From a virus (lineage: Duplodnaviria > Heunggongvirae > Uroviricota > Caudoviricetes): a DNA stretch of 15,280 bases. The stretch lies in the IMG/VR virus record IMGVR_UViG_2740892369_000045; one strand, written 5' to 3'. Positions 12,505 to 13,021 of the stretch are shown here, one piece after another. The position numbers and the translations under genes are program-made. Numbering within the stretch: position 1 is the stretch's first letter; the number at the start of each line of letters is the position of its first letter. Below the pieces are notes generated by a model. That model made no database searches. It had not been told where the DNA came from and saw only the letters and a program-made list of their open reading frames with translations.

Positions 12505-12732
12505 ATGGATGATTCAGATCGTGCTCAGGCTGTGATGGAGCGGGGATCAGAACGCGCCCTTTGTAACCGGCTGACACGTAAGCGCCAGGCAGTGGATACG
12601 CCGGGCAGACGTGTCTGCGCGGACTGTGGTGGAGAGATCCCCGCCGCACGTCTTGTTGCTGTGCCTGATGCCATCCGTTGTGTGAACTGCCAGAACATCA
12701 TGGAGGCCCGTAATGTGGGTCAGCATCGTTAA
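12505..12732 (+). CDS. TraR/DksA-family C4-type zinc-finger protein
   Basis: 75 aa; C-x2-C...C-x2-C (CADCGG ... CVNCQ) in the arrangement typical of phage TraR/DksA-like proteins; strong RBS AAGGAAAAGG. Confidence 0.7.
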   Translation: MDDSDRAQAVMERGSERALCNRLTRKRQAVDTPGRRVCADCGGEIPAARLVAVPDAIRCVNCQNIMEARNVGQHR

Positions 12733-13021
12733 AGATTATGTTGTGCCGATCCTTTCGGCGACGGCAACCGCTGGCGGGATATTCATGGCGCTGATGCGCA
12801 AAACGTTTGTCCCCCGCGAGGCCTTTGAAAAACTCTCCGACCGCGTTGAGAAGGTGGAAACCCGCCTGTCGTCACTGCCGACAGAAGCCGAGGTCAACCG
12901 TCTGAATGTGGAAATCGTGACCCTGCGGGGTGAACTGAAAACCACGAACGCCACGCTCCGCTCTGTCTCCTATCAGAACGAACTGCTGCTGGAGCAGGCT
13001 GTAAGGAAAAAAACGCAATGA
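12713..13021 (+). CDS. Small membrane protein (N-terminal TM helix plus coiled-coil); candidate lysis accessory protein
   Basis: 102 aa; GGAGG RBS 6 nt upstream of the ATG; TM segment VVPILSATATAGGIFMALM; the remainder is helical and charged. Confidence 0.5.
   Translation: MWVSIVKDYVVPILSATATAGGIFMALMRKTFVPREAFEKLSDRVEKVETRLSSLPTEAEVNRLNVEIVTLRGELKTTNATLRSVSYQNELLLEQAVRKKTQ

Follow-up and report, generated by a model that had tools for sequence, protein, structure and literature searches.

A DUF2730 protein as the probable Mu gp25-type releasin in the lysis cassette of a Mu-like transposable prophage

Introduction

Holins make lethal, depolarisation-triggered lesions in the membrane and most of them have two or more transmembrane domains (TMDs); holins and pinholins are small late membrane proteins that set the time at which the endolysin gains access to the cell wall or attacks it. 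In phage Mu, lysis needs the SAR (signal-anchor-release) endolysin gp22 and the protein gp25 together, neither of which alone suffices (Chamblee et al. 2022, mBio, PMC9239132). Mu 25::cam lysogens do not lyse on schedule, a defect rescued by chloroform, and gp25 is needed for gp22 to be released. The dependence on gp25 is conferred by K6 and K7 of gp22 and is retained when these residues are substituted by arginine, and a glycine run in gp22 was suggested as a possible contributor. gp25 also speeds the release of unrelated, heterologous SAR endolysins. None of gp19, gp20 and gp25 behaves as a holin: gp25 is non-lethal when expressed and is not triggered by dinitrophenol, which delays Mu lysis instead of advancing it. 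The protein was described as predominantly anionic, and the models proposed for a releasin include a Ser/His protease and an acidic microenvironment (PMC9239132).

The same study had already noted about 1,000 proteins with the DUF2730 domain in presumed transposable prophages, and reported DUF2730 genes paired with nine endolysin families, two of them with SAR domains, so that some of these proteins in other phages accompany non-SAR endolysins (PMC9239132).

Here, a stretch of 15,280 nucleotides from the viral record IMGVR_UViG_2740892369_000045 (Caudoviricetes), referred to as the window, was analysed with the focus on a 102-aa protein encoded at positions 12713-13021 of the + strand. The original prediction had proposed this protein as a candidate endolysin-release factor from its position and topology, on the precedent of a small single-TM protein of Mu reported to promote the release of a SAR endolysin. 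The precedent is correct (PMC9239132), and the proposal is now backed by homology over the full length of the protein.

Results

Gene order in the window

By its gene content, the window is the left-hand third of a transposable prophage of the Mu type. A Ner-like gene on the + strand and a repressor-like gene on the opposite strand are found together with transposase A (1536-3626, +), transposase B (3698-4630, +) and a series of early genes, behind which lies GemA (10254-10763, +). The leftmost 279 nt (1-279, − strand) hold the end of an ORF that resembles a host gene rather than phage DNA, and next to it a 237-aa ORF lies in the repressor position (534-1247, −), which suggests that the left end of the prophage should be at about 280-530. 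A terminator-like hairpin is present at 10768-10791, just 3′ of GemA.

The interval from GemA to the lysozyme (10254-11330) contained one Mor-family gene (10833-11258, +; Pfam PF08765 Mor, E 2.8e-32; PGAP 'Mor transcription activator family protein') in the position of Mu C (gene 21), and no counterparts of Mu 18, 19 and 20, which are absent from the cassette. C is annotated in the Mu record (AF083977) as the activator of the late lys promoter. Either the regulatory layout would differ from that of Mu with its separate Mor and C genes, or a second activator may sit elsewhere. Scanning 10700-14000 revealed no sigma-70-like promoter, which is expected of an activator-dependent late promoter and is uninformative.

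The genes are arranged as Mu genes 21-27, in the order activator, SAR endolysin, i-spanin, o-spanin, zinc finger, DUF2730 protein, gp26 and gp27. The i-spanin (Rz-like) gene at 11895-12293 (+) was recognised by PHROG 214 (E 6e-32), is named 'endopeptidase' by PGAP and has an orthologue in Salmonella with a match to Pfam DUF2570. Where it begins is uncertain, GTG 11865 being the choice of PGAP, GTG 11895 the one favoured by comparison with the Salmonella and Serratia loci, and GTG 11904 a further possibility. The o-spanin gene overlaps it (12124-12495, +) and encodes a LysC/Rz1-like lipoprotein (PHROG 3001, E 4e-42; Pfam LysC, E 3e-13), which when read from ATG 12124 carries the lipobox L-I-G-C with the cysteine at residue 39. 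GAGG is found 9 nt 5′ of this ATG, and the N-terminus MKNNRTF resembles the MMKSNKTF of a distant relative (L060). In RefSeq/PGAP the gene ('LysC') starts at GTG 12253, with the loss of the signal peptide and the lipobox. ATG 12124 restores both, and this database start is probably wrong.

A TraR/DksA-type C4 zinc-finger protein (12505-12732, +; Pfam PF01258, E 2.5e-12; PHROG 54) takes the position of Mu gene 24 and is weakly similar to Mu gp24 in the CxxC...CxxC region (E 0.011). On the other side of the DUF2730 gene, which like Mu 25 lies between a zinc-finger gene at the gene-24 position and gp26, are a winged-helix protein 63% identical to Mu gp26 (13018-13308, +; E 5e-41; PHROG 436) and a small terminase of the Mu gp27 family (13311-13892, +; Pfam Phage_Mu_Gp27, E 2e-33; PHROG 426, terminase small subunit), with which the packaging genes begin. 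In close relatives gp27 is followed by the terminase large subunit and then the portal (Portal_Mu), a gene that falls beyond the window. Relatives in Serratia and Salmonella have the same order, with DUF2730 proteins 74-79% identical to the one studied here. The original prediction had placed the gene downstream of the spanins, between the lysis and the packaging genes. This location holds, the SAR lysozyme and the spanins being upstream and the gp27 small terminase downstream; the zinc-finger gene between the o-spanin and the DUF2730 gene had, however, been overlooked.

The gene at 12713-13021 and its predicted product

The reading frame at 12713-13021 (+) is a genuine gene and not a chance ORF. 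It starts with ATG, preceded at a distance of 6 nt by the Shine-Dalgarno sequence GGAGG (12702-12706, read from the sequence), so that both the strong ribosome-binding site and the length of 102 aa stand as first described. The start overlaps the upstream zinc-finger gene by 20 nt, and the stop overlaps the start of the gp26-like gene in an ATGA at 13018-13021, a 4-nt overlap also seen between Mu 25 and 26. The pN/pS values of 0.18-0.32, obtained against relatives at pS 0.43-0.57, indicate purifying selection. Since all family matches fall on the + strand, the antisense ORF at 12736-12954 was taken to be a shadow ORF of this gene.

The sole hydrophobic stretch of the protein is a predicted TM helix at residues 10-28 (12740-12796), which is also its best 19-residue hydrophobic window (VVPILSATATAGGIFMALM) with a Kyte-Doolittle value of 1.80, compared to 1.84 for the TMD of Mu gp25. 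It falls within an AlphaFold2 helix spanning residues 3-30 and is directly followed by the twin-basic R29-K30; the basic residues on the C-side fit the positive-inside rule. The predicted topology is accordingly N-out/C-in, with a single N-terminal TMD, a cytoplasmic C-terminal domain and about nine periplasmic residues (K7 and D8 included), against four in Mu gp25.

The predicted cytoplasmic domain (residues 29-102; 12797-13018) contains 14 K/R and 11 D/E in its 74 residues and has a net charge of +3, compared to −1 in Mu gp25. The AlphaFold2 model, built on a shallow alignment, places two helices in it, at residues 35-53 and 58-101, and has a mean pLDDT of 73, with about 90 over residues 60-100. 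Hydrophobic residues occupy 6/6 of the heptad a/d positions of helix 1 and 8/12 of those of helix 2, the background being about 0.3. The single N-terminal TM helix and the helical, charged C-terminal domain (25 charged residues out of 74) of the original prediction are thus found again by hydropathy and modelling. The protein contains no histidine; the position of a semi-conserved His that precedes the C-terminal LLLE of the family is Tyr87 here.

Foldseek comparison of the model with the PDB gave no match (best E 9.7), and a profile search of PDB sequences returned generic coiled-coil noise alone. Neither search turned up a solved homologue or pointed to a structural or packaging fold. Pfam and PHROG likewise matched it to no virion-structural or packaging family, and the reading as a packaging protein was rejected.

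Membership in DUF2730 and relation to Mu gp25

The Pfam family DUF2730 (PF10805) matched the protein with E 7e-20 and 71.4 bits, the gathering cut-off being 24.9, and residues 6-97 covered profile positions 3-101 of 102 with the TMD included. PHROG 736, a family with no assigned function, also matched (E 9e-32). By BLASTP, the protein was 34% identical to the 99-aa Mu gp25 (AAF01103.1), itself a DUF2730 protein over its full length, with 61% positives over 93 residues (9-101) and E 5e-18; the matching gene in GenBank AF083977 is Mu_25, annotated as "releasin". The comparison with gp25-type proteins that had been proposed as a check of the release-factor idea is therefore positive, and by the alignment and the gene order the gene at 12713-13021 is the orthologue of Mu 25.

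Among 50,697 phage records, tblastn matched Mu, D108, SfMu and Mu-like phages of Yersinia with E 1e-9 and an identity of 34-36%; for Mu-like phages of Vibrio, Shewanella and Klebsiella the identity was 30-34%. The DUF2730 (PF10805/IPR020269) proteins of the latter transposable phages, exemplified by Vibrio phage martha 12B12, Shewanella MuM16-2 and Klebsiella Kp4866-3, resemble the protein studied here in having about 100 aa, a TMD plus a helical domain, the invariant P and G, and LLLE. In protein databases, a word-indexed search reached close relatives only (at least 70% identity), and an exhaustive search of representatives gave the wider family: among 1.84 billion cluster representatives, phmmer detected 59 relatives at E<=1e-3. 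Nearly all of the listed ones were about 100 aa and aligned end to end, the exceptions being a handful of truncated fragments and a pair of long proteins matched over a short helical stretch only. A scan of genome contigs added one locus, in Citrobacter braakii.

An alignment of 25 family members showed P56 and G73 as the only invariant residues and the C-terminal LLLE (91-94) as nearly invariant; all three are present in both the protein studied here and gp25. No Ser, His, Asp or Cys was conserved across the alignment. M28-R29-K30 aligns with M25-R26-R27 of gp25, and this twin-basic junction (RK here, RR in gp25) is restricted to a gp25-proximal subgroup, whereas most of the other members, including most of those from other transposable phages, have a single Lys in the sequence LSKTYA. 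The net charge of the cytoplasmic domain ranged from −3 to +4 among the 25 members, and an anionic cytoplasmic domain is thus not a conserved trait of the family.

The partner SAR lysozyme

The lysozyme gene at 11330-11830 (+) encodes a homologue of Mu gp22 (39% identity, E 9e-35; Pfam Phage_lysozyme, E 6e-37). Its N-terminus, read from the sequence as MPKLPAPLRKKLIALVLAGAGTFTIAT, has the basic cluster R9-K10-K11 followed by LIALVLAGAGTFTIAT and then by the retained triad E34-x8-D43-x5-T49. The segment from about L12 to T27 is weakly hydrophobic, rich in Ala, Gly and Thr, and abuts the basic cluster, a combination that we read as the SAR signature of the enzyme. The motif LRK[KR]L is kept in every close relative for which the lysozyme N-terminus was recovered (E. 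coli, Salmonella, Citrobacter and Serratia).

In an ungapped alignment of the N-termini, K6 and K7 of Mu gp22 face A6 and P7, and the basic cluster here is located 3-4 residues further in, as RKK at 9-11 compared to KK at 6-7. The glycine run of Mu gp22 is missing from the SAR segment. With the basic cluster present in this shifted position, dependence of the lysozyme on a releasin is plausible.

Holin-like genes at related lysozyme loci

By hydropathy, none of the ORFs in 10760-13100 had more than one TMD, and upstream of the lysozyme gene there was no hydrophobic one. The DUF2730 protein itself has one TMD and matched no holin family in Pfam or PHROG. Like Mu gp25, it is accompanied by a SAR lysozyme of the gp22 type and by a spanin of two components. 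No holin-like gene was seen next to the lysozyme, although a conserved single-TMD ORF of 34-36 aa (described below) is present at 11797-11907. From the lack of a holin-like gene beside the lysozyme and the precedent of Mu, we infer that lysis by this prophage may be holin-independent.

The arrangement was surveyed in 80 viral-contig loci with related SAR lysozymes (L041-L118), in which DUF2730 was scored 600-1200 nt downstream. None of the 27 scorable DUF2730-positive loci had a hydrophobic ORF directly upstream of its lysozyme, and 43 of the 53 DUF2730-negative ones had a holin-like hydrophobic ORF in this place, counts that rest on crude hydropathy and do not represent independent events since many loci are near-identical. 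The DUF2730-positive loci that were inspected had a Mor-family gene at the upstream position. No surveyed locus combined a DUF2730 gene downstream with a holin-like ORF upstream, a mutual exclusivity in keeping with the arrangement without a holin that has been described for Mu. The DUF2730-linked lysozymes of the survey had a longer N-terminus with the motif [IL]P-x-x-L-[RK]; five holin-linked lysozymes (e.g. L105 and L113) had a similar motif, P-x-L-R-N-K-L.

A small membrane ORF between lysozyme and i-spanin

A small ORF at 11797-11907 (+), absent from the PGAP annotation, encodes one strongly hydrophobic helix in a peptide of 36 aa from ATG 11797 or 34 aa from ATG 11803 (MVMSLRFAESLNRFWRPIMIALLCAVLLLRGVLWLR). 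It overlaps both neighbours, with its start within the last part of the lysozyme gene and its TGA stop in the region where the i-spanin gene begins; in the Salmonella and Serratia loci the i-spanin starts 13 nt before this stop. The frame was open in all 35 related loci covering the region, which comprised 20 distinct DNA variants down to 68% nucleotide identity, and the variable sites in the non-overlapping part numbered 12, 6 and 13 at the first, second and third codon positions. A recognisable homologue, MVMSEWIARCAERHWRSGITGLLIMVIILRGILLCLA, occurs in a clade in which the identity of the lysozyme is no more than 49%, and counterparts were located at 2804-2914 in L005, 3068-3214 in L004 and 3935-4078 in L060. 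Pfam and PHROG searches assigned the peptide to no family and gave sub-threshold holin-like noise only. In L016/L053 (IMGVR_UViG_2526164665_000023), one extra nucleotide (AAAG to AAAAG) joins the C-terminus of the lysozyme in frame to the small ORF; the insertion may be an error of sequencing or else a naturally occurring frameshift.

Mu has no equivalent of this ORF. It alone among the elements treated here has no earlier description, and it may be an additional membrane component of the lysis cassette.

Distribution of the cassette in E. coli

The DUF2730 protein is identical to RefSeq WP_000270159.1, "DUF2730 family protein". Of 5426 complete E. coli genomes, 231 contained the 2.6-kb cassette, in a total of 232 records that all but one matched it at a nucleotide identity of at least 90%. 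Many of the genomes were of O157:H7 and other STEC, and the cassette reached up to 4 copies per genome, on the chromosome and in one case on a plasmid. It was also present inside two Stx-converting phage records (LC727881 and LC727895; Stx1a and Stx2c), where it is annotated as part of an inserted Mu-like phage. The location inside Stx phages and the multiple copies indicate recent transposition, consistent with the element being a recently active transposable phage.

Discussion

The protein encoded at 12713-13021 is most probably a Mu gp25-type releasin, a reading to which we assign a probability of roughly 0.8 on the strength of homology, synteny and the features of its partner lysozyme. Its candidacy as an endolysin-release factor now draws support from the full-length DUF2730 match, the direct similarity to gp25 and the Mu-like gene order.

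The lysis pathway of the prophage may be depicted as follows: The protein would be made from a late transcript with its start directly downstream of the gene for the Mor/C-family activator, its translation being coupled to that of its neighbours through the overlapping stop and start codons. The helix at residues 10-28 would anchor it in the inner membrane, leaving some nine residues in the periplasm and the 74-residue, two-helix domain in the cytoplasm. The lysozyme would be exported by Sec and remain tethered and inactive, its SAR segment locked in the bilayer by R9-K10-K11 on the cytoplasmic side. The releasin would then act on the cytoplasmic side of the bilayer or inside it so that the charged N-terminus of the lysozyme leaves the membrane. 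Once freed, the lysozyme would refold and degrade the peptidoglycan, after which the spanins would fuse or disrupt the outer membrane, and no pore-forming holin would be required. Both the release activity and its dependence on the basic cluster are carried over to this prophage from the experiments on Mu (PMC9239132).

As for how a releasin acts, conservation limited to P56, G73 and LLLE, the lack of histidine and the net charge of +3 favour a non-enzymatic action, and a chaperone or membrane-transit role, a channel role or the recruitment of a host factor would fit better. Should the protein work as a releasin, a Ser/His protease and a simple acidic patch would both be unlikely mechanisms.

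Several observations weigh against the releasin reading. The identity to gp25 is only 34%, K6 and K7 of Mu gp22 are not matched position for position and the glycine run is missing, the cytoplasmic domain is net positive although gp25 was described as predominantly anionic, and DUF2730 proteins are paired with non-SAR endolysins as well, from which it follows that the function of the family may be broader than SAR release. A genuine DUF2730 protein could accordingly have a conserved task other than the release of SAR endolysins, for instance a general late-stage role at the membrane or in the timing of lysis, or one that connects lysis with packaging, and the release of gp22 in Mu would then be lineage-specific or indirect. 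Such a task would suit the SAR domains in just two among the nine families of endolysins paired with DUF2730 (PMC9239132), the constant location of the gene at the boundary of lysis and packaging genes with translational coupling to gp26, and a cytoplasmic charge that is not conserved. We nevertheless regard it as unlikely for this protein, which by direct similarity and the twin-basic junction belongs to the gp25-proximal subgroup and is paired with a gp22-type SAR lysozyme bearing a basic cluster; moreover, the release of unrelated SAR endolysins by gp25 implies an activity that is not tightly partner-specific.

Many O157-type prophages are defective, and the protein could on account of this frequency be an inactive remnant in a decaying prophage. 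This is very unlikely given the intact ORF with its strong ribosome-binding site, the purifying selection on it, the intactness of the whole cassette and the presence of the element in 231 complete E. coli genomes, in up to 4 copies and also inside Stx phages. Most improbable is a holin or pinholin that would itself depolarise or permeabilise the inner membrane and thereby release the lysozyme, although the protein, in the manner of holins and pinholins such as lambda S105 and phage 21 S68, is a small, late-expressed membrane protein, and its lysis cluster has no other obvious holin nearby: it has a single TMD with a large cytoplasmic domain, matches no holin family and has in gp25 a characterised homologue that fails the holin tests of lethality and dinitrophenol triggering (PMC9239132).

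For the gp25-type releasin favoured here, action without a holin has to be seen beside the 34-36-aa membrane peptide, which could contribute to membrane events. That the releasin and this peptide form a two-component release or timing device in this Mu-like clade, one absent from Mu, is a doubtful but conceivable extension.

The protein is already known in the sense that it is an ordinary member of a family whose prototype was characterised in 2022, and little is added scientifically beyond that work on Mu. The element would fit the holin-less lysis scheme of Mu, and for annotation a "DUF2730 family protein" in a prophage of many Shiga-toxin-producing E. coli becomes a probable releasin. With no histidine, Tyr87 in place of the semi-conserved His, a net-positive domain and a partner lysozyme with a shifted basic cluster, it is a natural variant that can serve as a comparator for the models of releasin mechanism. 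A functional test of such a histidine-free, net-positive releasin would, if the protein works, directly exclude the protease and acidic-patch models.
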